Virus record (IMG/VR): IMGVR_UViG_3300037010_002464
Strand: one strand, 5' to 3'
Length of the DNA stretch: 64,000 nucleotides
DNA from: a virus
This document shows, piece by piece, positions 15,670 to 41,716 of this stretch; position 1 is the first letter of the stretch; each line of letters begins with the position of its first letter. A model generated the notes under the pieces. It did no database searches. It was not told the DNA's origin and worked only from the letters and a program-made list of their open reading frames with translations. The position numbers and the translations under genes were made by a program.

Positions 15670-15978
15670 GCGGTGTATACGGGTGGTGCTTAGGCTTGAT
15701 ATCAAGCAAGGGTACATAAGGGCAATAGAAATAGCCGTCGGCTATCGGGCCATCTTTTGCCTTGTACCCTAATGCTACTATCTCTTCAAGAGCTTCCTCG
15801 ATTGCTTCAGCTGCCGCTCGAGCAATTTCCTCGCTCAAGATCCTAGCAATTTCGTCCTCGAGATCCAGGCCATGCTCTTGCTGCTCTTGCTTTAGATCTT
15901 GCACCTGCTCGTCCAATTAGCCTTAAGCTTACGCGGAGCCACTTCGATTGACCAGGAGCTTATGCTGAAGGTTGACAT
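15666..15978 (-). pseudogene. Miniature major-capsid-protein (gp23)-like gene, frameshifted near 15912; 3' end approximate
   Basis: MSTFSI...EVAPRKLKANWT / EQVQDL...HGLDLEDEIARILSEEI...GYK...GYFYCPYVPL. Confidence 0.65.
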
Positions 15979-25376: not shown

Positions 25377-26351
25377 TTACCAGGTATCGCTGATTTCAAT
25401 GAAGCACCGACCTGCTGTGCTGCCTGTGTACACAACAACGCAAAGCAGGGTCTTGCCAGCTACTACGCCGGTGCCGGTGATGATGTCGCCGTGCGAGCCG
25501 GCGAGAGACGAGATCGGAGCCCACATGCCTGGCATCCGCCCGCGCACGACATGGTAGCTGCTTGCCACAATCTCAGCAAGCTCAACCGACGTTAGTAAGA
25601 TGCCGCCTGTCAGTGGGTCGGGATACGTGTTTGACGAGCTAGACGCGCCCATCGTAGTTACGCTGGCATACTGGCCTGGAAGCCCCTTGTGGAACTTAAC
25701 GCCGCCCTGACCTTGGCCCAAGTAGCCACGGCAGATGTAGTGCCCGCTGGCTGCCGATGAGGAGATGCTGTTTGAGCAAGAGCCGAACTGTCCGGTACCG
25801 GCCGTTGTGTTCACAGGCCCGAAGATAGCCGTGTTGTATGTGTCGCCCGGACGGTAGCTAATGAAGTCACCGAAGAAGAACTGCCCGTTGCTCGAGTTTG
25901 TGGTGTTGGTCGAAGCCTCCCACGTAGTCGGGGTCGAGGTTGGCTCGATGAACATGTACATCGCGGTAGCCGATGTAATGATTACCCACGCACGAGCGGT
26001 AGCATCAGCGGTGCTGCTCTTCATGATCGGGTAGCCAGCCGCTTGCGAGAATGACGTGCCTAGGTCTTGTGAAAAATTATTGACTCCCACTGAGTCGCTT
26101 GACATCGTTTCATAGCCGTGGAAACGCGCTGGCGTAGCGTTTGAGTCATCCAGGCGCAGGTATCGTTGATTGCCGCCTGCAGTACGGTAAACAGCGATAT
26201 TGGTAGCGCTATACGGCTTGGTCCAACCAGAACCAGTAGACGAGCCATAGCCGCTAATGAGGACCGAATCTAGCAAGGCTAGAAGGCTACCGGTTGTGCC
26301 GGAAAGGGTCGGCGCACCTGCGTCGGACGAGCGATAAACGCGAACAGTCAT
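25377..26351 (-). CDS. Tail-fibre/structural protein, paralog 3 of 3
   Basis: Y.SSDAGAPTLSGTTGSLLALLD..L..GYG....GW...N.AVYR...R.YLR.DD. Confidence 0.7.
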   Translation of the reverse strand: MTVRVYRSSDAGAPTLSGTTGSLLALLDSVLISGYGSSTGSGWTKPYSATNIAVYRTAGGNQRYLRLDDSNATPARFHGYETMSSDSVGVNNFSQDLGTSFSQAAGYPIMKSSTADATARAWVIITSATAMYMFIEPTSTPTTWEASTNTTNSSNGQFFFGDFISYRPGDTYNTAIFGPVNTTAGTGQFGSCSNSISSSAASGHYICRGYLGQGQGGVKFHKGLPGQYASVTTMGASSSSNTYPDPLTGGILLTSVELAEIVASSYHVVRGRMPGMWAPISSLAGSHGDIITGTGVVAGKTLLCVVVYTGSTAGRCFIEISDTW

Positions 26352-26368
26352 ATGATCTCCTAAGCTAT

Positions 26369-27349
26369 TTACCAGGTATTGCTAGTCTCGAGAAAGGCTT
26401 TCCCGGTGACAGTTGTAGTTAGCGCGTTGTTGCGCGTGTAAGCGGTGACAACGAGATAGGTCTGTGAAGCGGTGCCATTGAACGTATCACCGTGGTTGAA
26501 GCCAGTCTGTTGCGGAGCCCACAAGCCAGGCAGGTAGCCGCGCGCCACAATTATGTCCGTGGCTAGGTTAGGATTTTGTTGCAACCCACGTTCAGAAATT
26601 TGAATCCGTTGCATCGTGATCATTCCAGAGACAGGATCAGGATACGATGTCACAAAGCCGTTCCACACGCCCAGGGCAAAGTCCGAGTAGTTATTGCTGG
26701 CAAGGTACCGCATGGCTGACTTATAGCAACCGATTGACCTCTTTAGCTGCAGGATGCCGCGGCAGATGTAGTGGCCAAGATGACCTGCAGCCGGTGAGCC
26801 GCTTGAGTTTAGCTGTGCAAAGTTACCCATGCCAGCGGTGCTCGAAGTTGAGCCGATGATCATTGTGTTGAACTGGTCACCAGAACGATAGCTAATAAAG
26901 TCACCAAAGAAGAACTGTCCGCATGATGAACCGGTTGTAGAACCTGCAGCCCACGCATTTCCAACCTCAGGGAAGAAGTAGAAGCAACGGTCATTACCCG
27001 CTAGGATCCAACCCGACGTGCCGCCGCTGGTCTTTCGCAAGTACAAGCCACCCGATACCTGCGCATCAGTTGGGAACTGGTTAAAGCCTGTGCTCAATCC
27101 GGTCATTGACTCAAAACCTACCACGCGTACAACTTGCGTGTCAGTATCGTCAACTCGGATGTAGTGCCTGTTACCGCCTGGTGCCCGGTAAACAGCAACA
27201 TTGGTACCTGAATAGTCCTTGGTCCAACCAAGGCCTGTTTTTGAACCGTACCCTGTGACCAAGCATGCGTCAAGCAGCGCGATGAACGAACCTGCGCTGC
27301 TTGTCAGAGTCGGCGCGGAGGCATCGCTGTCATAGAAAGTTGTTGCCAT
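26369..27349 (-). CDS. Tail-fibre/structural protein, paralog 2 of 3
   Basis: Same N-terminal motif; FFFGDFISYR; RGYLPGLWAP. Confidence 0.7.
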   Translation of the reverse strand: MATTFYDSDASAPTLTSSAGSFIALLDACLVTGYGSKTGLGWTKDYSGTNVAVYRAPGGNRHYIRVDDTDTQVVRVVGFESMTGLSTGFNQFPTDAQVSGGLYLRKTSGGTSGWILAGNDRCFYFFPEVGNAWAAGSTTGSSCGQFFFGDFISYRSGDQFNTMIIGSTSSTAGMGNFAQLNSSGSPAAGHLGHYICRGILQLKRSIGCYKSAMRYLASNNYSDFALGVWNGFVTSYPDPVSGMITMQRIQISERGLQQNPNLATDIIVARGYLPGLWAPQQTGFNHGDTFNGTASQTYLVVTAYTRNNALTTTVTGKAFLETSNTW

Positions 27350-28368
27350 TATGCGTACCAGTTATCCGTTAGTTCGATGATGAAAGGGGCAACACCGTTG
27401 CTGCTGGTATAGTAGAACGTAAGGCCTATAAACTGGCGACCTGCATACGCGCCTGTACCGTTCCAAATATAGCCTGAATTTTCAAGACCACCGTTGATAA
27501 CCGACGCAGCATATGTCAGGCCACCATAACCTCCTGGCAAACGGCCACGAATCAGCCATTGCACCAAATTGGTAGAATTTTCAGACTGCTCAGCAAGCTC
27601 AATGCCCACAATACCTACTTCGCCCGTACCCTGCTCAGGGAAACCCAAGAAGCCCGTAGAGTCAGGTGCCATGATAGTCATGCCGTTGACCATGCCGGTG
27701 ACTTGGCATGCACAAGGGTGAGAGATCTTAGCACCGTTGTAGTTGCGCGCCATCCAGTGATTGGACATCGTTGTCCCCCAGGTTGATTCAGAGCCTAAGC
27801 CTTGATACAGTGTATTTGTCAGGTTGGTCAGCAGGAAGCAATTGTACGTGTCCGTAGTCTGCTTGTGACTCTTGATCTCGCCAAAGAACCACATATCAAA
27901 CGCTTGGTTCAAGCCAGAACCGGTGATTTGTGTATAGACAGCCGACGAGCTAGCGCTGCCGCACATGAAGTAAAACGCGCGGTCATGAACGATGGCCATC
28001 CACGGGCGCGCGGTTGCGCTAACTGTTGAGCTTTTATTAACGGTCTGCCCGTTTGTTGCTTGAGCGACGCTTGGAAACGGATTCGTGCCATCATCCGTTG
28101 CGTCAGTCATTGTCTCATAGCCGCGCAGCTCGGCAAAGGCGGCTGTCACAAAAGTAGCTGAATCATCAACCATCAAGTAATAGCGGGTGCCGGTTGCTGC
28201 ACGATATGAAGCGGTGTTGGTACCTGCAAATGCTTTTGACCAGCCAGCGCCAGGCTGCGAGCCGTAACCGTTCACAAGCACAGCATCGAGCAGCGCGACA
28301 AGCGCGCCGGCGGTGCCGCTCAAGACCGGCGCTCCAGTATCTGTTGACTTATAAAGGCGAACTGTCAT
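27349..28368 (-). CDS. Tail-fibre/structural protein, paralog 1 of 3
   Basis: Same N-terminal motif; RGRLPG. Confidence 0.7.
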   Translation of the reverse strand: MTVRLYKSTDTGAPVLSGTAGALVALLDAVLVNGYGSQPGAGWSKAFAGTNTASYRAATGTRYYLMVDDSATFVTAAFAELRGYETMTDATDDGTNPFPSVAQATNGQTVNKSSTVSATARPWMAIVHDRAFYFMCGSASSSAVYTQITGSGLNQAFDMWFFGEIKSHKQTTDTYNCFLLTNLTNTLYQGLGSESTWGTTMSNHWMARNYNGAKISHPCACQVTGMVNGMTIMAPDSTGFLGFPEQGTGEVGIVGIELAEQSENSTNLVQWLIRGRLPGGYGGLTYAASVINGGLENSGYIWNGTGAYAGRQFIGLTFYYTSSNGVAPFIIELTDNWYA

Positions 28369-28529
28369 ACAGTAGGTGGTGTGTAGTTTGAGTTGGAAAA
28401 CTGCAGGATCAAGCTGTCACCGGCTTGAGGCGTATATGTCAGGCTGGTCTGCTTAAGCACCAAGTTGAGCGGCATGGTAGACAGCCGAAGTTCGGCTGAA
28501 ACTACAGCATTTGAAAAGCCATTGTTCAC
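28365..28529 (-). CDS. 54-aa structural peptide (below the ORF-track cutoff)
   Basis: GTGA and ATGA coupling at both ends; [18 protein letters not shown]. Confidence 0.6.
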
Positions 28530-29761
28530 GCTACGTCTCCTGTCACGTCCCAGGTATCTGAACCCACGTACATCGCTAGGATGACAGCGCCGCGGCGACC
28601 CGTCGCGCCCGCATACCCAACGGGGATGTTGAGCGTCACACCGCCTGCTGGTGAAAGCGTAATCTGACCTGTGCCGACTTGTCGAACGCTGATAAACTGC
28701 CCGAGCGTGAACGGCACGGTCGAGTTGAGTGGCACCGACACGATACCTGCACCTGACACATTGATGCGGATTAAGCCACCGGCGTCAGCAAGCAAGAAGC
28801 TCTCAGTTGTCGATGTAGAGTTCCGAAAGGCGATGGCTGTTGCCCCGCCTGCTGGACCGGTTGGGCCAGGACCTCCCATGCCGTTAGCGCCGGTCGGACC
28901 CGTCGGACCACCGAACGCTCCTGTTGGGCCAAGCGGGCCTGTTGGGCCGGTGACATTTGAAGCAGCGCCGGTTGGGCCGGTGACTGAGTCGCCGGTTGGG
29001 CCGGTGATGCTTAGGCCGTTAAGGCCGGTTGGACCTGCATTCCCGGTTGCGCCCTTAGCGCCAGTTGGGCCTGTCAAAGACGGTCCTGTTGGGCCGCGGG
29101 CGCCGGCAGGACCAGCCGGGCCTGTAGCCAGGATCGAGCCAGTGACCGAAACACCGAAGCCGAACAGGTTGCCCTCGATATCCCACTCGTTGGCACCTAC
29201 CTTCGTGACTGAGACCTTGCCGTAGCGTTGGCCGATCTGGAGGGTGCCGCCAGGCGAGTTGAGGGTAACCGAGCCGTTCTTTGGGGTGATAAATGTAGGG
29301 TCAGTGCCTACTTGCGACGCCACCACGGTCGTGCCGATGGGGAAGTTAACCGTTGCGTCATCAGGAATGACCAGCGATGCATTGACTCCACCTGTGCTGT
29401 TAAAGCGGAACAAGTAAGAGACATCCGTGATGACAAGCTCGTAGTTAACGGCCTTCGTGCGGATACGGGGCGACGACAAGTCAAAGTAGGTACCGCTGTC
29501 AACTACGGACGGGTATTCGATGGTGTCTCGGGTGGCGTTGTAACGTACAGGGCTCGAGCCGATAGGGATCCACGTGTCCCGGGCGGCGTTCATGATGTAG
29601 GCTACATCCTCCTCCAGGTCTGCAACGATCTGGCCACCGTAACGGCGAGGTGAAGTCAGGTAGTCGAGCCGCTCAGCCGTTGTCGCAAACGAGCTATCGA
29701 TGTCAATCGGAACTGAGTCCTGCCGCTTATACTGGAGCGGAAAGAGAGTAAGCGCAGCCAT
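28526..29761 (-). CDS. Collagen-like fibre protein, GPT repeats between two duplicated beta domains
   Basis: GPTG array; duplicated IP......F.IG......QVGT...VTLN...WD..G domain. Confidence 0.8.
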
Positions 29762-31674
29762 TAGATGAAGACCCTGTAGTGGTTCGTGATCGAGAAGGGC
29801 TCAACCGGGGTATAGGTGTAGACTCGGTAGGTTATGGGGCCGTACCCATTATTGCCGTACACTTGCATCGAGCTTTCTACAAAGTTGCCCTTAACTTCAG
29901 AGTCAGCGAGCTCTTGATAACGCACGGAGGCAACCGCTCGCCGGTCCGCTGGGTATGCAAAAGTTACGCTAGGTGAGCCAGGCGGGATCGTAATGACAAA
30001 GTTCGGAAGAATCGACCCACCGATGGCTACACCGGCTGAATCCACCGTAGCATTTACGTCTGAGCTAAACGTCGGTGTCAGGTTGTTTCGCACGTCGGCG
30101 CCGGTCATCGGCGCGCCTTCAGATGGCGAGCCATAGTATGCCAGCCATTTACCTACATAAGAGATGGAATTTGAGGGCGCTGTACCTGCAAGAATATGGC
30201 CAGTGCAATCCTCAACGCCCATGTTGTTGAGCTTGCAGTCGCCCTCGTTATAGCTCGTCGTACCCGAATAGACAACAGGCGAGAGCGTCTGTTGTATAAA
30301 ATTGTCGGTGTTCGGGTAGCTAGTTGCAAGCAGCACCGAGTTCTTTGACAGCGTAGTGCCGTTTTCAGGGCCACCGTCCCCTGGGTTGTAGCTTCGGTTG
30401 ACCTCGATGTCCAAGAACGTGCCGATCTCAGACACAGTAATTGAACCGATTTGATAGCTGTTCAGCAGCGGAATCTGAGATGACGGGTCCGGGTCAGGGA
30501 TGCTGTTGCCTGTGATGCCCATTGACGGCGCAACATAGCCAGGAGGCAGGGTACGCTGCGAGACTAGCAGCACAAACTGCGAGAATGTCAAGCCTTGAGT
30601 GAAGGTAAAGCCCTCATCGACCGCGCCGACGGAAGTGCCGATGACCTCAACGTCTTGGTCAAGCGGGCCCATGCCTTGACCGCCCATGCCTGCGGCGCCG
30701 AAGCGGTCAATGTCAAGCTGAATCGAGACCTCAGAGAGGATCGTGCCGACCTTTAGCTCGCCTAGCTGCGTTGCGTTGGACGGCGGACCCTGGTACAGCA
30801 CGCCGTTCACGCCGCAGAAGATGTCCTTGCCGAGCGAGAAGTCCCAGTTCCACTGGTCATTGTAAAGGATGCCGTCCTGCAGGTACTCGACCACGTCTCC
30901 GACGGCGGCTTCATGCGTAGAGATGCCGATCGGCCACTTCATGGCGTCAACGGGGCTTGCGAGTGCGGCGGTTGACAGGTTGATGTTGGTGACGCACACG
31001 AAGGCCGGAATCGGCTCTTGGGCGATCATCGCTGTCGAGCCAGCCTCGAGGTTGACCGGCGAGCTGTAGCGGCCAGTGTTGATGACGATGTTCGTCGCCG
31101 AAGTCAGCAGGGTGCCGTCGTCAAGCCTGATCGCTTTCAGGTCCTCGCCGTAGGTGATGTAACCCGCAGTGACGTTGACGTTTAAGCCCACCTGCGAGCC
31201 GAAGCTCCGGTGCGTGATGACTTGTGTGCTCGGGCCAAACGAAGCGGCGAAGACGCGGCAGCACTGCTTCCAGGTCGTCGAGTCCCAGTAGTACATGATG
31301 TGCTCGTTCGTGTTGAACCAGCACTGGTCAACACGTTGGCCTGTAGGCGCTGTCGGGCCGTAGGTGACCGACCACGGCGTGTAGCCCTTGGTCACATGAC
31401 CTGTAGCCAGGTTGATGTCCCAATACAGCTGATAGGTGATCAGCGAAGGAGGCGCGCCCCAAATAGGCAGCCAGTTGAACGGGCCCCATGACTGGGACTG
31501 GTTCACGCGCTCCTCGATGAGGTAATCCTTGTCACGATACGCGGCAGCCACGATCAACCACGGCGACGTGATGTTCACGTTTACGGTGCTATGGGTGTTG
31601 TTGTAGGTGAGGAAGTCGGGCTTGGACAGGATAGACCGAGCGCGAACGATGCCTTGACGAAAGTTGAGTTGCAT
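29761..31674 (-). CDS. Virion structural protein; N-terminal half paralogous to 33664-35031
   Basis: MQ..F.QGI...YWDIN.ATG.V..G.T; EPIPA...ND.W DUF2190-like domain. Confidence 0.65.
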
Positions 31675-31687
31675 AACTAGCCGCTAT

Positions 31688-33663
<1,976 letters not shown>

Positions 33664-33667
<4 letters not shown>

Positions 33668-35031
33668 TGTGGAACGATCATCCAAGAGATCAGCGATGTA
33701 TCAGCCGCCTGAACAGCACCGAGATAGTCTCGAGAGGTAATCGTGAAGCTGTTTTCAAGCTTCACGATTGAGTAGCTGCAACCGATGGTGCCGCCGTCTG
33801 ACAGCCGGTTGACAAACACAAGGTCAGAGTCGCCCATCGTAGCTGTGACTGTAGCCGTACCGTTGACAAGCGTAGTGATGCCGACGGTTGTCGTAGTTTG
33901 CGGCGCTGGGCCAGTCGGACCTTCGGGACCCGTTGGCCCAGCAGAACCGTCTGCCCCTGTCGGGCCAGCGGCTCCAGCTGGGCCGGTAGAACCTACACCC
34001 CCTAAGGCTCCGGTCGGGCCGGTAAGGCCGCGCGGGCCCGTCGGGCCTGCATCGCCGCCACCAGGGCCAGTAGGACCGACAACCGAAGACATGTTGTCCA
34101 GCATGAAGCTGAGCAACAGCGACTTGTGGCCTCGTACCACGCCGACGGCTTGCGCGATGCTATTGAACGGCCGGGAGGTCGTAACGGCGCCGCCTGAGTC
34201 GAGCCAAAGCAGCTTGCCGATGTCTTCATCATCGAAGTCAAACTGGTCATTGATGACCACGCCGCTCGACACGACATGTGCAGGCAGACCTGTGCCTGTT
34301 GCCTGCCGAACATAGCCAGACGCCCACCGATCAAGGTCAGGGTCAGCGACTACGAGTGCACCTGGCGCTTGAATGGCGACAAATGAGCCGGCTGGGATCG
34401 GCTCAGCGGCCAGCGTGTACTCCTGCTCGGCATCGAGCGAGACCACGTTGTCGAAGCCGCCGACTATGACCTTGAAGCCGTTGGCCGAGTTGATGAAGGT
34501 GCCGTCAAGCGGGTCTTGCACGCCGCGGCCGCTCAGGCCGTACACGATGTAGCCGGCGCTAGAAGGAGTGGCAAGACCTACCTGTGACGCAAACGGCCAA
34601 GGCTCTACGGCGAGGTTCAGCACGTGGCCAGCAAACACTCGGATCTTAGGGACCCAGGCGCCGTCGTAGCCGTAGTACATGACCTTTTCTGTCGTGTTGA
34701 AGTAGTGGAGGCCGTTCGTAACAGTCAACGGCATCAACGGGCCATACTGCGGCGCCGTAGTTGTGAAGCCGCGTGAGACAGCGGCTGTTGCGGTGTTGAT
34801 GTCCCAATAGAGCCATGCGTTGCCTGTTGTCGGCAGCGGGCCCCAAGCGTGCGAGACGTTATATGGCTCGTCAAGCAGGTAGTTTCGAGTCTTGTGAGCG
34901 GTCGTAGCGAGGAGCTTTTGATCCGTGACGTAGATGTCAACGTAAGCTCCGTCCATCTGAAGAAACAGGCGCGCATTGCCAGGCAGGGCGGTCTGTCCCT
35001 TAAGAATGCCTTGAATGTACGGTACCTGCAT
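33664..35031 (-). CDS. Virion protein with short GPT collagen segment
   Basis: N-terminus paralogous to 29761-31674; GPTG repeats near the C-terminus. Confidence 0.75.
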
Positions 35032-35057
35032 GAAGACCCTCTTAAAATGCTTCTATG

Positions 35058-35128
35058 TGACAGCCATAGATATAATGTCTGTCGGTCAATCCCTCTATTT
35101 ATGCATAGAGGGCTGACAGCTATAGAAT
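35058..35128. promoter_or_regulatory. Divergent control region between the collagen operon and the glycosyltransferase operon
   Basis: Direct repeat TGACAGCyATAGA (35058, 35114); TATAAT and TAGAAT boxes (+); TAAATA (-) inside hairpin CCCTCTAT/ATAGAGGG. Confidence 0.6.
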
Positions 35129-35137
35129 AGGATACAC

Positions 35138-36904
35138 ATGCCGTATAGCTCAGAATCGGGTAAGCCGATCATCAAAGCCGTCCTCCAACGGCTCGCAAGC
35201 CGTCGCAAGAATGAAGAGCTCAAAGCTCTCGACATTGGTGCGGGTAGTGGGACCTACCCGAAGCTCGTCAACCAGCTCTTTCCAAAGATCGCTTGGACAG
35301 GGGTTGAAATCTGGGAGCCGTATGTCGAACAGTTTGGCCTCAACGAGCTATATGACCAGCTGCTAATCCAGGACGCGCAGTCAGCCATGGCTTGGCTGCT
35401 CACCGAACAGCAGCATCTTCAGCGCTTCGACCTGATCTTCATCGGTGACGTGCTTGAGCACATGACACGACCTGTTGCGCTGTACGTGCTCAACATGGCG
35501 AAGCAGCTGCTCAGCGAACGTGGCATGCTGATTGTGTCGGTGCCTATCGGCGACTACCCCCAAGGCGAGTACTTGGGCAACCCGCACGAAGCGCACGTTG
35601 ACACCTGGTTGACCCTTAAGGAGCTAGAGCTGGCGTTAATGCCCGAGTCTGTCAAGAGCGGTCACATTGGGCCGTGGTCATCACGGGCTGTGCAAGATAA
35701 TGAGATCGGCGTGGGCTTCTACTACGCATCGCATATCTACGGCACGCTTCGACCTAGCATTGGCGCTTACCTGATTTGCAAGAACGAGGGTGAGTTCATC
35801 AATCGTTGCTTAGACAGCCTGGATGACTGCAATGTCGTTATCGCTTGCGACACCGGCTCGACCGATGACACGCTTGCCAGGCTCAATACGTATGCCGAGT
35901 CGCCTGACTTCGGCCCAGAGATGCAAGTGCACGAGCTTTGCGTCTCTCCTTGGCGCTTTGATGACGCGCGCAACGCCGCGCTCAGCTTCATGCCGAGCGA
36001 CATCGACTTGTGCATCTCAATCGATGCCGATGAGACTCTCGAAGGCTCATTCGTGCCTGACCTGCGCAAAGCGTGGTGGGACACCTTCTGGCAAGGTAAA
36101 ATCATCGACCGGGTCTACCACTCGTTTTCGACCCACTGGAACTGGGACAAGCCTGACGAAGCCCCGAACGTCTCGAACCACTTCCATGAGCGGATCCATA
36201 GCCGGTTCGGCTACCGCTGGTTCCACCCAGTGCATGAGAAGCTGGTAGCGAGCAATGAAGCTTGCGCGATCTGGCGCACTGGCCTGCTGATGAAGCAACA
36301 GCCTGACAATAGCAAGAGCAGGTCATCCTACTTGCCGCTGCTCGAACAGGCTGTCAAAGAGGACCCGACCGACTGGAAGCTGTGGTCCTTCTTATCGAGC
36401 GACCTCGCTGCAGCCGGACGAATTGATGAGGCTCTGGCAGCCCTTGAAACTTGCGGCCAACAGCCTGAGGCTGACAAGGCGTTCATCTGCTGGCGTAAAG
36501 CAGGCCTCTATGAGCACAAGGGCGACATCGACAAGGCCTTGGTTGAGCTCGAAAGCTCAACCAAGCTGAAGCGAATCCGTGAAAGCTTCGTGCTGTGGGC
36601 TGAGATGCTTGAACGGCATGCCAGGCCAGCACAGAACGCCTGGCATGCAGCTCTTCGCTGTGAACAACCCACCCAAGGCTACATGCGGCGCGAGGACGTG
36701 TGGACGCCTGAGTTCAAGGCGATGCTCGAAGAGAAGGTGGACTGGGAGCCACCTAACTTTGTCTACAATGCAGGCGGCGAGCTGCTCAAGCTCTATAACG
36801 CGGGCTCGATCGGCGCCGATGAGTACTTGTCGGTGATGAACGCGCTCGGCGCCGCCATCGATCCAGCAACATTCAAAGCCTCAGAGGCAGAACGGAAGAC
36901 CTAA
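35138..36904 (+). CDS. SAM-methyltransferase / GT2 glycosyltransferase / TPR fusion
   Basis: LDIGAGSG, GVEIW, GDVLEH; ICKNE, DTGSTD, PWRFDDARN, IDADE, VHE; helical TPR-like C-terminus. Confidence 0.85.
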   Translation: MPYSSESGKPIIKAVLQRLASRRKNEELKALDIGAGSGTYPKLVNQLFPKIAWTGVEIWEPYVEQFGLNELYDQLLIQDAQSAMAWLLTEQQHLQRFDLIFIGDVLEHMTRPVALYVLNMAKQLLSERGMLIVSVPIGDYPQGEYLGNPHEAHVDTWLTLKELELALMPESVKSGHIGPWSSRAVQDNEIGVGFYYASHIYGTLRPSIGAYLICKNEGEFINRCLDSLDDCNVVIACDTGSTDDTLARLNTYAESPDFGPEMQVHELCVSPWRFDDARNAALSFMPSDIDLCISIDADETLEGSFVPDLRKAWWDTFWQGKIIDRVYHSFSTHWNWDKPDEAPNVSNHFHERIHSRFGYRWFHPVHEKLVASNEACAIWRTGLLMKQQPDNSKSRSSYLPLLEQAVKEDPTDWKLWSFLSSDLAAAGRIDEALAALETCGQQPEADKAFICWRKAGLYEHKGDIDKALVELESSTKLKRIRESFVLWAEMLERHARPAQNAWHAALRCEQPTQGYMRREDVWTPEFKAMLEEKVDWEPPNFVYNAGGELLKLYNAGSIGADEYLSVMNALGAAIDPATFKASEAERKT

Positions 36905-36907
36905 GTA

Positions 36908-37462
36908 GTGTTTCATTACATCTACAAAACTACTTGTTTAGTTACAGGTCGATATTACATCGGCATGCATACTACCAAGAAGCTCGAAGATGGCTATTTG
37001 GGCTCTGGGAAGTTGATCCGTAGGTCTATTGAAAAATATAGATCGGATCAACATGCCAAGATCATCCTCGAGTATTGCCAGAGCTTAGATGAAGTAAAGC
37101 GACGTGAACGCGAAATCGTCACACATGCGTTAATTGCCGATGACCTATGCATGAATTTGAAAATCGGTGGTGAAGGTGGCGGTGAGCGCGGCGTTAAACG
37201 ATCAGCTGAAACGCGGGCACGAATGTCGGCTTCAATGAAAGGCATTCCTAAAAGCCCCGAGCATGCTGAGAAAATGTGGCAAGCTAAAATAGGCACAACC
37301 GCATCCGCAGAAACCCGTGCCAAAATGTCAACATCTCGGATAGGGAAGAAATTGCCCTTCAGTGCTGAGCACATTGCAAAACTAACAGAAGCACGCCAAA
37401 ACCGCCGCGATGAAGGTCGAGACAAGCATAATCTAGGACGTAAATTTCCAAGGACCGAATAA
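36908..37462 (+). mobile_element. Free-standing GIY-YIG (Seg-like) homing endonuclease with NUMOD3 repeats
   Basis: YIYKTT...YYIGMH...YLGSG; SAETRA(R/K)MS twice; AT-richer insert between the two GT genes. Confidence 0.85.
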
Positions 37463-38550
37463 TGAAAGTTTCTGTTTATACAATTGCCCTCAATGAGTCC
37501 AAGCATGTGAACCGCTTCATGGACTGCCTGGTCAATGAGGCTGATGATGTCTACGTGCTTGACACGGGCTCCACAGACGACACGGTAAAAAAGCTCCGAG
37601 CACGCGGCGCTATAGTCAAGACGGGCGTCTTCTCTCCGTGGCGCTTTGACACGCCGCGCAACGCTTCGCTCGCTATGGTGCCTGCAAGCACCGACATCTG
37701 CGTCTGTATCGACCTTGACGAGGTCCTGACACCCGGCTGGCGGGCGGCCGTGGAGAGGGCTTGGGTGCCTGGCACGACACGCCTACGTTACAAGTACGCA
37801 TGGAGCCACAACGCCGACGATACGCCGGCTACCACATTCTACTACGACAAGATCCACCAGCGCAAGAACTACCGTTGGGTCAAGCCTGTGCACGAAATCC
37901 TTCAGCTCTACAACGAGCCCGAGGTGCAAGCGTGGTCGGAGGAGTTCATGCTTCACCACTACCCAGACGTGTCCAAGAGCAGGTCATCCTACCTGCCGCT
38001 GCTCGAGCTAGCTGTCAAGGAGGAGCCGCATGATGACCGCAGCTGCCATTATCTGGGCCGTGAGTATATGTACTATGGCCACTACGACAAGGCTATCACA
38101 GAGCTGCAACGTCACCTGAGCTTGCCGTCGGCTACGTGGGCCTCCGAGCGCGCGGCATCGATGCGGTTCATCAGTCGCTGCCACATGTTCAGAGGTGACT
38201 ATGAGGCCGCCAAGGTCTGGGCGCTGAAGGCGTGCGCTGAAGCACCTAATGACCGCGAGCCGTGGTACGAGCTAGCCAAGGTCGCCTACTTGCTGAAGGA
38301 CTTCAACCTGCTATACAGCTCAGCCGAAGCAACCCTGAAGACCGGCGAGCAAGGCCGTACCTACATCAGCGATCCAGAGGCATGGGGCTACTTGCCGTAT
38401 GACTATGCGGCGCTCGGAGCTTGGAACATCGGCTTCAAGAGCAAGGCGCTTGAGCACGGCCGACTGGCTTATGAGCGGGCGTTGAAGCTGCAAGAGCCTG
38501 AGCAGGTTATTGAAAGGCTCAAAACAAACATCACATTCTACAACAGCTGA
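37462..38550 (+). CDS. GT2 glycosyltransferase with TPR repeats (SunS/SgtA-like architecture)
   Basis: YTIALNE, DTGSTD, PWRFDTPRN, IDLDE, PVHE, KSRSSYLPLL, YLGREY. Confidence 0.88.
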   Translation: MKVSVYTIALNESKHVNRFMDCLVNEADDVYVLDTGSTDDTVKKLRARGAIVKTGVFSPWRFDTPRNASLAMVPASTDICVCIDLDEVLTPGWRAAVERAWVPGTTRLRYKYAWSHNADDTPATTFYYDKIHQRKNYRWVKPVHEILQLYNEPEVQAWSEEFMLHHYPDVSKSRSSYLPLLELAVKEEPHDDRSCHYLGREYMYYGHYDKAITELQRHLSLPSATWASERAASMRFISRCHMFRGDYEAAKVWALKACAEAPNDREPWYELAKVAYLLKDFNLLYSSAEATLKTGEQGRTYISDPEAWGYLPYDYAALGAWNIGFKSKALEHGRLAYERALKLQEPEQVIERLKTNITFYNS

Positions 38551-38564
38551 ATACAATCAAATCT

Positions 38565-39407
38565 ATGTCTGAAATTGAACAAGCATTCCGCAAGATCTAC
38601 GCTGATGTCGCTGCCGGCCAAGAGTGCTCACCCCGTGGCCAGAAGGTCATCGAGGTCGAGAACTATGCTTACGAGCTGCCGCCTTATGCTCGCTTCGCCA
38701 ACTTTGACGCTCGCAAGCTGAAGCTTGGCTACGTCAAGAAAGAGCTTCTCTGGTACCTGAAGGCCGACCCGTTTGACCTCAGCATCGTGGACGCCGCCTC
38801 TCTCTGGCAAGAGCTGCCCAACCCCGACGGCACCATCAACTCGCACTACGGCGCTCACGTCTTCGGTCGTGGTGATGATCAGTGGCGCACGCCGTTGAGC
38901 ATCGGAGTTCCGTTGGCGCACAAGAGCCAGTTCTCGGCGATCATCGCTGAGCTGCAGCGCGACAAGGACTCTCGCCGTGCCTCGGCGACCATCCTCAATC
39001 GCAGCCACCTGCTCAACCCAGCGACCAAGGACTTTCCTTGCACCTACGCCCTCAACTTCCGCATCCGCGACAACGAGCTAAAGATGAGCGTGCACATGCG
39101 CAGTCAGGACGCTGTCTTCGGCATGGGCAATGACGCGCCGGCTTTCTCGTTGATTCAAGAGATGGTCTACGTCTGTCTGCGTGACTTCGCTTACCCTGAC
39201 CTGCAGATGGGCTCTTACCACCACATCGCCGACTCGTTCCACTACTACGAGAGGCACTTCGACATGGTGAAGGAAATCAATGCAGGCTCGGCCTTCACGC
39301 CCATCGAAGTACCCCGCATCCGTGACGCTAGCGAGGTAATCTACCTGCTAGGTAACATCAGCAAGGATTCCAAGCCGGGCGACTTCACCGCCTGGCTCAA
39401 CTCTTAA
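38565..39407 (+). CDS. dCMP hydroxymethylase-like thymidylate-synthase-fold enzyme (T4 gp42-like)
   Basis: DFPCT, MRSQDAVFGMGND (Asp at the base-specificity position), SFHYYERHF. Confidence 0.8.
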   Translation: MSEIEQAFRKIYADVAAGQECSPRGQKVIEVENYAYELPPYARFANFDARKLKLGYVKKELLWYLKADPFDLSIVDAASLWQELPNPDGTINSHYGAHVFGRGDDQWRTPLSIGVPLAHKSQFSAIIAELQRDKDSRRASATILNRSHLLNPATKDFPCTYALNFRIRDNELKMSVHMRSQDAVFGMGNDAPAFSLIQEMVYVCLRDFAYPDLQMGSYHHIADSFHYYERHFDMVKEINAGSAFTPIEVPRIRDASEVIYLLGNISKDSKPGDFTAWLNS

Positions 39408-40251: not shown

Positions 40252-41157
40252 ATGCTATTAGAGATTATTGATACATCACAAAAGTTTGACAGAGCTATTA
40301 GGCTATGGAAAGTTGCTTGTGATGACTGCACAATAGAACAACTTAGAACATTCAATCAAATTCGTAACAGCGAACAACGATGGAACGGATTCCATATTTG
40401 TAAGCCTTGTGCAACACGAAGAACCAACAAGACCAAGACACAAGAGGATTATGCAATCGCTGGAGAGGCTGGGCGATTGGCAACCAAAAATAAACGCTTA
40501 GAAGAAATCGTGGGTGAGACTAAGGCAAAACGAATCAAAACGGAGTATACAGCTAAAAGATCTGGGAAAAATAATCCAAACTTTGGTGGCAAATTATCAC
40601 GCGGATTCGCGGATAGACCTCTCAGAGGAAAATGGGAGGATTTGTTCGGAATAGAAAAAGCAGCTGACATGAAACTTAACATGTCAATTCGCAATAGCGG
40701 TTCTGGCAATCCAATGTACGGTCAACCTACACCAAAGAAGGCCGGGTGTGGTATTAGCGGTCACTACAAAAACTTCTATTTTCGCAGCTTGCTTGAGTTA
40801 TCAATGATGCTCATGTTAGAAGCAAATAGCATAGTTTGGATATCAGCAGAGTCTAAAAATCATCGTTTCAAATATATGATAGACGGAAGAGAACGATCAT
40901 ACTTCCCTGATTTCTATCTACCGGCAACTGATGAGTACATCGAAATCAAACCGAAATCGCTTAGCAGATCTAGAGAGGTCCTAGCTAAACTTGATGCAGT
41001 ACGAGCTACTGGGAAGAGAATAAAATTGCTCTCGGATGAGAATGTGAATAAAATCTCATATGCTAAGTTGATAAAGTTGATGGCTGATCAAACAATTGTC
41101 ATTGACAATAGTAAGTTAAAAAGAGTTGAAAAATATGCTGCAAAACATAATTTGTGA
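40252..41157 (+). mobile_element. Free-standing homing-type endonuclease: NUMOD-like repeats plus TnsA-N-like PD-(D/E)XK domain
   Basis: GKNNPNFG, GSGNPMYG, FRSLLE, YFPDFY...IEIKP; markedly AT-rich. Confidence 0.75.
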
Positions 41158-41716
41158 AGGTTTGGACAGGCTTGGTAAAAGCACGCTTGTTGACAACCTT
41201 AAGCAACGGCTCGGCCACTTCACCAGCCTGCATTACAGCAAGCCTGAGCTGCTGTCCTACTACGAGCTACGAGTCGGGCGGGGCAAGGCGCACGAGTTCT
41301 ACCAGCGCGATTCCTTCGGTGGCATGTTCAAGCTTCTCGCTTCGGACGCTCGGGTCATCATGGACCGCGGCCACCTCGGCGAGATGGTCTATGCCCATCG
41401 CTATCGCGGCTATGACGGCAGCTACGTGCTCGACCTCGAGCAAGGCAAGGGCGTTGACAACACCCTGCTCGTCCTGCTCGTCAATCATGACGTGGACCTC
41501 GAAGCAAGGCTCGTCGATGACGGCCTCGGCTTTGACTGGGGCAAGCGCAAGGAGGAGCAAGAGGACTTCATCACCGCCTTCCGCCGCTCCAAGATCAGCC
41601 ACAAGGCGCTCATCAATGTAGGACGACAGGGCCACTTCATCGACCAAGCGGAGATCATCGATGCTGTCTCCCAAGCCTACCTCAAAGCCGCCTGGTACAC
41701 CAGCATCGATGCTTGA
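41135..41716 (+). CDS. Thymidylate/dNMP kinase family
   Basis: IICEGLDRLGKST P-loop; MDRGHLGEMVY...YRGY. Confidence 0.8.
   Translation: MLQNIICEGLDRLGKSTLVDNLKQRLGHFTSLHYSKPELLSYYELRVGRGKAHEFYQRDSFGGMFKLLASDARVIMDRGHLGEMVYAHRYRGYDGSYVLDLEQGKGVDNTLLVLLVNHDVDLEARLVDDGLGFDWGKRKEEQEDFITAFRRSKISHKALINVGRQGHFIDQAEIIDAVSQAYLKAAWYTSIDA

Follow-up and report, generated by a model that had tools for sequence, protein, structure and literature searches.

Predicted glycosylation of collagen-like fibres by a pair of tetratricopeptide-repeat glycosyltransferases in a jumbo-phage lineage

Which molecule does a phage modify with two glycosyltransferases (GTs) whose genes stand head-to-head with a block of collagen-like fibre genes? 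The question is raised by positions 28526-38550 of a 64-kb stretch of viral DNA (the window, meaning the whole stretch analysed), which is taken from the 133.9-kb IMG/VR record IMGVR_UViG_3300037010_002464 with a CheckV completeness of 37%. Both enzymes carry a family 2 glycosyltransferase domain (GT2) followed by tetratricopeptide repeats (TPRs), and one of them is additionally fused to an S-adenosylmethionine (SAM)-dependent methyltransferase (MTase). We refer to the fusion protein of 588 amino acids (aa) as GT-A and to the 362-aa protein as GT-B; these labels are distinct from the fold classes of the same name. Judging from sequence comparisons, we put the probability at roughly 0.7 that both are cytoplasmic O-glycosyltransferases of the SgtA type, whose targets would be the Thr residues of Gly-X-Thr arrays in fibres made by the phage itself, the second transferase and the MTase elaborating the glycan. 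The initial annotation had proposed that the phage glycosylates its own collagen fibres, and the comparative tests presented here (fold, gene linkage, Thr at Y and a survey centred on a neighbouring thymidylate-synthase homologue) support this proposal.

The two glycosyltransferases and the fibres they face

The genes of the two enzymes and of the fibre module are as follows.

35138..36904, plus strand: GT-A, 588 aa; class I SAM-MTase (~aa 1-170), GT2 of GT-A fold (~aa 205-392) and TPR helices (~aa 395-535), from Pfam
37462..38550, plus strand: GT-B, 362 aa; GT2 of GT-A fold (aa 1-170) and about seven TPR-type helix pairs, from Pfam and PHROG 13126
33664..35031, minus strand: fibre protein, 455 aa, first gene of the leftward fibre block; N-terminal attachment-type domain and K1-lyase_C-type C-terminal domain
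31688..33685, minus strand: main collagen-like fibre, 665 aa; Gly-X-Y array at aa 123-551 (window 32033-33319)
29761..31674, minus strand: fibre-module protein without collagen repeats, 637 aa
28526..29761, minus strand: fibre protein, 411 aa; interrupted Gly-X-Thr segment (~aa 214-299) and globular C-terminal domain, matching PHROG tail-fibre families

The arrangement originally described, a SAM-MTase-GT2-TPR fusion and a second GT2-TPR protein head-to-head with fibre genes, is seen in both the open reading frames (ORFs) and the Pfam matches, and the annotated gene coordinates agree exactly with the ORF calls. In GT-B, Pfam places the GT2 domain at aa 4-93+ and the TPRs at aa 178-273+. The GT parts of GT-A and GT-B share 35% identity. 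The nucleotide-binding motif DTGSTD and the metal-binding motif D-x-D-E are invariant in both paralogue families, and the catalytic columns of GT-A are invariant across 33 fused homologues. The motifs are intact in both proteins; transfer of a sugar to Thr of Gly-X-Thr peptides, as by SgtA, would be the predicted activity.

We modelled both enzymes with AlphaFold2, obtaining a predicted local distance difference test (pLDDT) score of 95 for GT-B and 90.5 for GT-A. The GT-B model consists of a GT-A sheet followed by helix pairs. In Foldseek searches, the best solved matches of both proteins are the peptide-directed transferases SunS and ThuS, and the superposition extends over the catalytic and helical domains in either case (GT-B, E 2e-14 and a template modelling score of 0.64; GT-A, E 1e-17). 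The MTase part of GT-A resembles the small-molecule and peptide MTases BamL, SgvM and RedM. A sequence profile of the family matches the GT domain of GmaR (E 9e-9). Fold and sequence thus both group the enzymes with SunS, ThuS and GmaR, in agreement with their first description as protein glycosyltransferases. Scores against the NCBIfam model of the SunS family (TIGR04195) are 22.8 and 19.3 bits, far below the cut-off of 350; GT-A and GT-B are fold relatives of SunS that lie outside the SunS family.

The family profile also has a weak match to the TPR-like domain by which collagen prolyl 4-hydroxylase holds its peptide substrates (E ~4e-4), a domain that binds proline-rich collagen peptides; the match spans aa 266-354 of GT-B (window ~38257-38523). 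We set this match aside as non-specific, since designed TPRs score far better.

The longest collagen array belongs to the 665-aa fibre. It comprises 429 aa and 130 triplets, of which 31% are Gly-Pro-Thr (GPT), with Thr at 55% of the Y positions and Pro at 42% of the X positions. The protein matches PF01391 (Collagen) with 153.5 bits (E 1.2e-45; cut-off 27.2), which places it in the collagen family, and the Thr residues at Y are the predicted acceptor sites. Homologues of this fibre are found in the related loci L313 and L005. The 455-aa fibre contains 19 Gly-X-Y triplets at aa 319-376 (window 33904-34077) and reaches 21.6 bits against the same Pfam model, under the cut-off of 27.2. The 411-aa fibre has 25 triplets with a longest run of 7 and gives no match to Pfam Collagen; that this segment forms a triple helix is doubtful. 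Of the initial description of three late GPT-collagen genes, the number and the long array hold; the array of the 411-aa protein is interrupted, and the sole pointer to late expression is an ATAAATA box described below.

The fibre module comprises four minus-strand genes, the one for the 637-aa protein having been absent from the initial annotation. The N-terminus of this protein is 30% identical to that of the 455-aa fibre over 303 aa, and the ~300 aa common to the two proteins are likely a shared attachment domain. Homologues of the 637-aa protein occur in L313 (69% identity) and also in L315 and L317. Directly downstream of the fibre genes, at window 25377-28368 on the minus strand, lie three tandem paralogues of 324, 326 and 339 aa (PHROG 9600/9998, 'tail assembly protein'), which are candidates for fibre chaperones or for additional components of the fibres. 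A fourth collagen-like ORF of 386 aa is located in the same genome outside the window (C1:118808-119965) and has no adjoining GT; the last 100 aa of the 411-aa fibre are 41% identical to its C-terminal domain.

Linkage of the enzyme family to threonine-rich collagens

More than 5,680 proteins belong to the GT2-TPR family at E ≤ 1e-10, which makes it a large one. A scan of IMG/VR with a single protein gave two loci, and the family alignment retrieved 80. In these 80 viral loci and in 80 loci from Bacillota, a co-directional collagen gene is found just upstream of the GT in 56-65% and downstream in 2-12%. Among viral loci with enough flanking sequence, 28/50 have a collagen-like ORF in the 5 kb upstream of the GT and 7/60 have one downstream, and 68 of the 71 collagen ORFs are on the strand of the GT. 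Each 1-kb bin between 5 and 10 kb downstream contains a collagen ORF in 0-2% of viral loci. The same asymmetry is seen on metagenome contigs of ~130 kb (upstream in 5/6, downstream in 0/5).

In bacteria, a collagen-like gene is situated just upstream of the GT in 30/46 loci. For the 80 Bacillota loci, whose enzymes are 45-53% identical to GT-B, the first kilobase upstream has a collagen ORF in 37/60 cases and the first kilobase downstream in 1/71. Several of the collagen partners end in a BclA C-terminal domain, and no match to BclA_C was found in control genomes. The co-occurrence of GT2-TPR enzymes with collagens, which the initial annotation had named as a check of its proposal, is therefore observed in viral and bacterial loci alike.

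A more distant tier was sampled in 401 genomes of Peptostreptococcales. The homologues found there (358-366 aa; 22-26% identity; E 1e-14 to 1e-17) are encoded directly upstream of a collagen gene of 640-780 aa in which the Thr fraction at Y is 0.70-0.76. This layout is the published sgtA-bclA3 arrangement (PMC7157674), and by arrangement these proteins are probably SgtA orthologues.

In the isolated actinophage DSL-LC01, the gene order is collagen, collagen, YHYH protein, halogenase and GT. The YHYH-domain protein and the homologue of flavin-dependent tryptophan halogenases occupy the same position between collagens and GT in DSL-LC01 (L001 6004-9004) and in many IMG/VR actinophage loci. Together with a Methyltransf_24 gene (see below), they are possibly further fibre-tailoring enzymes. 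Overall, GT genes are linked to collagen genes in three different orders, and the linkage is seen in several lineages that are not related.

The collagens that accompany the enzymes also differ in composition from other viral collagens. As a background, we used 79 collagen-like ORFs from IMG/VR drawn by a Thr-neutral pattern; their median Thr fraction at Y is 0.13, and 23% of them reach 0.4 or more. The median for GT-linked collagens is 0.59 in viruses (n=52) and 0.60 in bacteria (n=58), with 92% and 83%, respectively, at 0.4 or more (p = 5e-10 and 2e-12, uncorrected for relatedness). Two of the 79 background ORFs had a GT2-TPR gene in the stretch covered, and these have Thr fractions of 0.75 and 0.82. 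The fibres of the window have values of 0.55 (665 aa), 0.42 (455 aa) and 0.32 (411 aa).

Within the phage lineage, synteny of the fibre genes, the divergent gap and the GT pair is kept in L313, L315, L317 and L005 at 38-71% protein identity. P0001 is among the closest metagenomic homologues (90% identity), and a blastn search of the GT region against isolated phages returned nothing useful. A complete relative, G403, has a genome of 345 kb with terminal repeats. Because G403 carries a T4-type gp23 capsid gene, we assign the lineage to the T4-type jumbo phages. This affiliation is taken from G403, the record itself offering a capsid-gene remnant alone: a single short gp23-type match at window ~15698-15784, which scores 15 bits by itself and 25 bits with its in-frame neighbours. 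The true capsid gene must be in a part of the genome outside the record.

Competing substrates: other proteins, glycans and DNA

Several observations weigh against collagen as the substrate. The homology of GT-A and GT-B to SgtA is argued from architecture and context. One group of WhiB-bearing actinophages contributes many of the viral loci; the counts are not independent, and the raw numbers overstate independence. The divergent gene order of the window differs from the co-directional order of most loci. About one-third of the homologous loci have no nearby collagen gene, including the Bacillota cassettes most similar to that of the phage (L098 and L128), and family members may serve other substrates too. 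The GT genes also run into a block of nucleotide-metabolism genes headed by a homologue of T4 gp42, and RB69-type clusters of this kind hold DNA GTs (PMC13326640). Finally, the available 134 kb of the record, which is 37% complete, yielded no further GT.

The stronger of the two alternatives is that the enzymes glycosylate a protein or glycan other than the collagen fibres, such as another virion protein (capsid or tail tube), a host surface protein (flagellin or pilin) or an envelope polymer whose modification would block superinfection. GmaR-type GT2-TPR enzymes target flagellin, and the collagen-less loci mentioned above also speak for this alternative: one such Bacillota cassette is followed by nucleotide-sugar genes, another by a Thr-rich surface protein with immunoglobulin domains, and no collagen neighbour was seen for the homologues of PaBG and other jumbo phages. 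Also, the GT genes are seemingly under a different class of promoter from the fibre genes. Nevertheless, the linkage to collagens is strong and directional and has been repeated in several unrelated lineages, the enrichment of Thr at Y is specific to GT-linked collagens, and the GT pair of the phage lineage is found solely beside collagen fibres. We therefore consider this alternative unlikely.

The second alternative starts from two genes that follow GT-B.

38565-39407, plus strand: thymidylate-synthase homologue of the T4 gp42 type, starting 15 bp after GT-B; unremarked in the initial annotation
41126-41716, plus strand: deoxynucleoside-monophosphate (dNMP)-kinase-like gene, following the thymidylate-synthase homologue

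A HMMER alignment of the thymidylate-synthase homologue to T4 dCMP hydroxymethylase (1B49) pairs DFPC with DFMC, RSQD with RSND and GND with RND, and includes the catalytic Cys; by these features, the protein is of the gp42 type. The published signature of 5-hydroxymethyl-dCMP synthases is L143D and N177D with D169 kept (PMC13326640), and the equivalents of all three residues are present in the homologue. Because the neighbour gene carries a gp42-type dCMP hydroxymethylase signature, the phage probably makes DNA in which 5-hydroxymethylcytosine (5hmC) replaces C. The GT2-TPR pair could then glycosylate this DNA, with the gp42-type enzyme and the dNMP kinase supplying the base, as for the alpha- and beta-GTs of T4 or the arabinosyltransferases of RB69. 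GT genes beside ThyA homologues and dNMP kinases are a hallmark of DNA-glycosylation clusters (PMC13326640; bioRxiv 10.1101/2023.12.21.572611), the adjacency of GT-B and the thymidylate-synthase homologue is kept in L313, L315, L316, L317 and L005, and in the literature on freshwater actinophages this GT is presumed to glycosylate DNA or the cell wall (PMC10202952).

A survey centred on the thymidylate-synthase homologue separates the two associations. It covers 17 viral loci with a gp42-like gene (45-66% identity), of which 5 have the GT pair, with collagen fibres on the far side in 4/4 evaluable cases; the GT pair was found solely where collagen fibres flank it, and in 11-12 of the 17 the surrounding 10 kb contain no GT pair and no collagens. 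Conversely, of 174 loci centred on the GT, a single one has a thymidylate-synthase homologue close by. Tracking of the GT homologues with DNA-modification genes had been named initially as the outcome that would speak against collagen, and the comparison came out for the collagens (28/50 and 30/46 loci, against 1/174). Moreover, homologues that are 45-51% identical to GT-B adjoin BclA-type genes in bacteria, which have no 5hmC.

The enzymes themselves also look unlike DNA GTs. TPR domains and folds of the SunS, ThuS and GmaR type mark protein substrates. The DNA GTs described so far have a GT-B fold or a JGT-like GT-A fold, in a survey that never mentions TPRs (10.1101/2023.12.21.572611), and they are without TPRs, unlike the GT-A and GT-B proteins. 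No match to PF09198 or PF00534 was found in the record. Judged by fold and by co-occurrence with ThyA or 5mYOX genes, the two enzymes fall outside the phage GTs for 5hmC and 5-hydroxycytosine (5hoC) in DNA, their top folds being protein GTs, and the fused MTase resembles small-molecule and peptide MTases, unlike DNA MTases. Finally, G403 has six further GT genes elsewhere in its genome, which are other candidates for DNA modification. Taken together, these results make DNA a very improbable substrate of the pair.

The six further GT genes of G403 cluster with a sulfotransferase gene and a Methyltransf_24 gene. This second glycan cluster (L330; G403:C1:58000-74000) has three or four GT2 genes and one GT1 gene besides these two, with an NTP-transferase and a CofD-like gene nearby, and its target may be DNA, the virion or the host.

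Methylation, gene control and comparison with known systems

Fusions of MTase, GT2 and TPR domains are recurrent. We found 180 such proteins at E ≤ 1e-5, some with a third domain, the sugar transferase PF04488. Elsewhere in the family, the fusion partner is a C-terminal FkbM-type MTase or an N-terminal Methyltransf_11 domain, and in 22 actinophage loci a separate Methyltransf_24 gene adjoins the GT. Since the GT family has repeatedly been fused to three different MTase families and to a sugar transferase domain, we infer that a methylated glycan is favoured. The fold search identifies the fused domain with generic small-molecule and peptide MTases, compatible with methylation of a sugar or of a peptide. 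The 'possibly O-methylated' fibres of the first description are consistent with the recurrent fusions. Among relatives, the closer one, L313, keeps the MTase fusion (53% identity) and L005 is without the MTase domain.

Tandem GT pairs are present in 33/192 loci, and the two-gene cassette of MTase-GT and GT is also found in the bacteria Desulforamulus aeronauticus and Brevibacillus fluminis. In D. aeronauticus (L098 11209-16738), an MTase-GT/GT/GT cassette is followed by genes for a nucleotidyltransferase, a 4,6-dehydratase, a thiamine pyrophosphate (TPP)-dependent enzyme and an aminotransferase, a set that suggests the synthesis of a branched or amino sugar of an unusual kind. In a tree from a quick maximum-likelihood search (midpoint-rooted; the root is arbitrary), the MTase-fused GT-A clade joins Desulforamulus and Brevibacillus with the phage lineage at 100% in the Shimodaira-Hasegawa-like approximate likelihood ratio test (SH-aLRT). 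GT-B is situated in a virus-rich clade nested among Bacillota branches, and the SgtA-like tier splits at the base. The cassette, which the phage lineage shares with spore-forming Bacillota, has moved between cells and viruses; the tree gives no direction of transfer.

The control region between the two gene blocks and an inserted gene have the following coordinates.

35032..35137: divergent gap of 106 bp between the start codons of the 455-aa fibre gene and the GT-A gene
35096-35102, minus strand: ATAAATA box facing the fibre genes, T4 late-promoter-like
35069-35076, plus strand: GATATAAT box facing the GT genes
36908..37462, plus strand: GIY-YIG/NUMOD3 homing endonuclease gene between the GT-A and GT-B genes (PHROG 314, 3.5e-38)

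ATAAATA, which resembles the core of the T4 late promoter, occurs eight times in the window (2487, 9535, 9976, 31685, 35096, 44730, 51801 and 57662) compared with 1.8 expected copies, mostly just 5' of gene starts on the same strand. Some copies are merely 6-12 nt from annotated starts, and some of these starts may be mis-set. The GATATAAT box has three copies compared with 0.6 expected, each preceding plus-strand genes. Both boxes of the gap are conserved in five relatives whose proteins are only 40-70% identical. A scan of the gap for the two hexamers of a sigma-70 promoter gave no match, the conserved element being a -10-like box only. The simplest reading is that the gap combines a T4-late-type fibre promoter with a -10-type early or middle GT promoter, their 5' ends nearly overlapping. 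The shared divergent control region of ~100 bp in the initial annotation thus corresponds to a real gap of 106 bp, whereas the co-regulation it implied is unsupported: because the gap has two different promoter-like boxes, we prefer to read it as an early/middle promoter and a late one, each separate. The ATAAATA box is enclosed by a perfect 8-bp inverted repeat, CCCTCTAT and ATAGAGGG with a 6-nt loop (window 35091-35112), which relatives keep only in part.

The homing endonuclease gene, unremarked in the initial annotation, is absent from the same spot in L313, L005 and L315 and is therefore a recent selfish insertion and no working part of the glycosylation system.

From the sequence features observed, we infer the following mechanism. 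A TATAAT-type promoter would drive rightward transcription of the GT genes, either ahead of the fibre genes, which would be late and under ATAAATA control, or independently of them, so that the enzymes would already be present when the fibre chains appear. The TPR superhelix would grip the extended Gly-X-Thr chain, and the GT-A-fold domain, binding the nucleotide through DTGSTD and the metal through D-x-D-E, would move a sugar from the host pool of UDP-sugars to the hydroxyl of Thr at Y. If SgtA is a guide, this sugar would be an N-acetylhexosamine (HexNAc). The GT-A paralogue may extend the glycan or serve other sites, and its fused SAM-MTase would methylate the product, most likely at a sugar hydroxyl that caps the glycan. 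In the last step, trimers of these chains would form glycosylated collagen stalks on the virion. A stable triple helix without hydroxyproline, plus shielding from proteases or during adsorption, would be the likely gain; any role in stability, adhesion or shielding is speculation.

A much broader version of this mechanism is possible and distinctly more tentative. Thr-O-glycosylation capped by O-methylation might replace hydroxyproline as the stabiliser of the triple helix in the collagens of very many viruses (T4-type jumbo phages, freshwater actinophages and others), with a cassette exchanged with the exosporium machinery of Bacillota. In this phage, two promoters that overlap and face opposite ways would yield the enzymes before the fibres, so that the folding of the fibres would depend on prior glycosylation.

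If the fibres are indeed the substrate, many aquatic phages carry sugar-coated collagen fibres, a modification distinct from the capsid and tail-tube glycosylation of mycobacteriophages. The annotation of such GT genes, which papers on freshwater phages ascribe to DNA or cell-wall modification (PMC10202952, PMC7029224), would change. The case also shows that a GT beside a gp42-type gene need not be a DNA glycosyltransferase. Glycosylated fibres would bear on host recognition, virion stability and shielding from antibodies or proteases, and compact enzymes that glycosylate (Gly-Pro-Thr)n would be of interest for recombinant collagen materials.

The closest known counterpart is the SgtA (CD3350)/BclA3 system of Clostridioides difficile. 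SgtA has 358 aa, with a GT-A domain (1-260) and TPRs (262-358), and it adds beta-O-GlcNAc to Thr of collagen-repeat peptides of BclA3, a protein of the exosporium, with UDP-GlcNAc and Mn2+ (PMC7157674). As a GT2-TPR protein of ~360 aa, it has the size and architecture of GT-B. Both systems have linked Thr-rich collagen genes: clostridial homologues of 358-366 aa are directly upstream of collagen genes, and in the window three such genes lie across the 106-bp gap. However, the clostridial homologues share only 22-26% identity and sit on a deep branch of their own, whereas the window enzymes belong to another subfamily, ~50% identical to enzymes of other Bacillota. The phage system also differs in being viral and in having two paralogues, a fused MTase and a divergent arrangement.

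SunS and ThuS (PDB 7MSN, 7MSK) are peptide-directed GT2 enzymes and the best structural match over the GT-A fold and helical repeats, but their identity is 15-18% and they are glycocin S-glycosyltransferases, SunS modifying a Cys of a small bacteriocin and not the Thr of a collagen. Listeria GmaR (PDB 7X9R and a GT-domain entry) likewise has GT2 followed by TPRs and works in the cytoplasm, where it attaches O-linked sugars to Ser/Thr of a filament protein; unlike the phage enzymes, this O-GlcNAc transferase acts on flagellin, is longer and doubles as an anti-repressor. The alpha- and beta-GTs of T4 and the arabinosyltransferase clusters of RB69 and DLP3 share with the window the proximity of GTs to an N177D thymidylate-synthase homologue and a dNMP kinase in a T4-type phage. 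These DNA GTs are without TPRs and have a GT-B or JGT-like GT-A fold, whereas the window GT family tracks collagens.

Among viruses, the mycobacteriophages studied by Freeman et al. in 2023 (cited in PMC12619734) reportedly use GTs to decorate their own structural proteins, the targets being the C-terminal tails of capsid and tail-tube subunits and not collagen repeats. These virion GTs are not known to contain TPRs. Mimivirus encodes both collagen-like fibres and glycosylating enzymes. Its hydroxylase-glucosyltransferase L230 acts via hydroxylysine and needs an oxygenase, whereas the window system is without an oxygenase and its predicted acceptor is Thr. In the literature searched, we did not find a viral, collagen-directed form with a tandem GT pair and an MTase fusion. 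Spore biology already offers systems of this kind, and mycobacteriophages offer examples of glycosylated virions.

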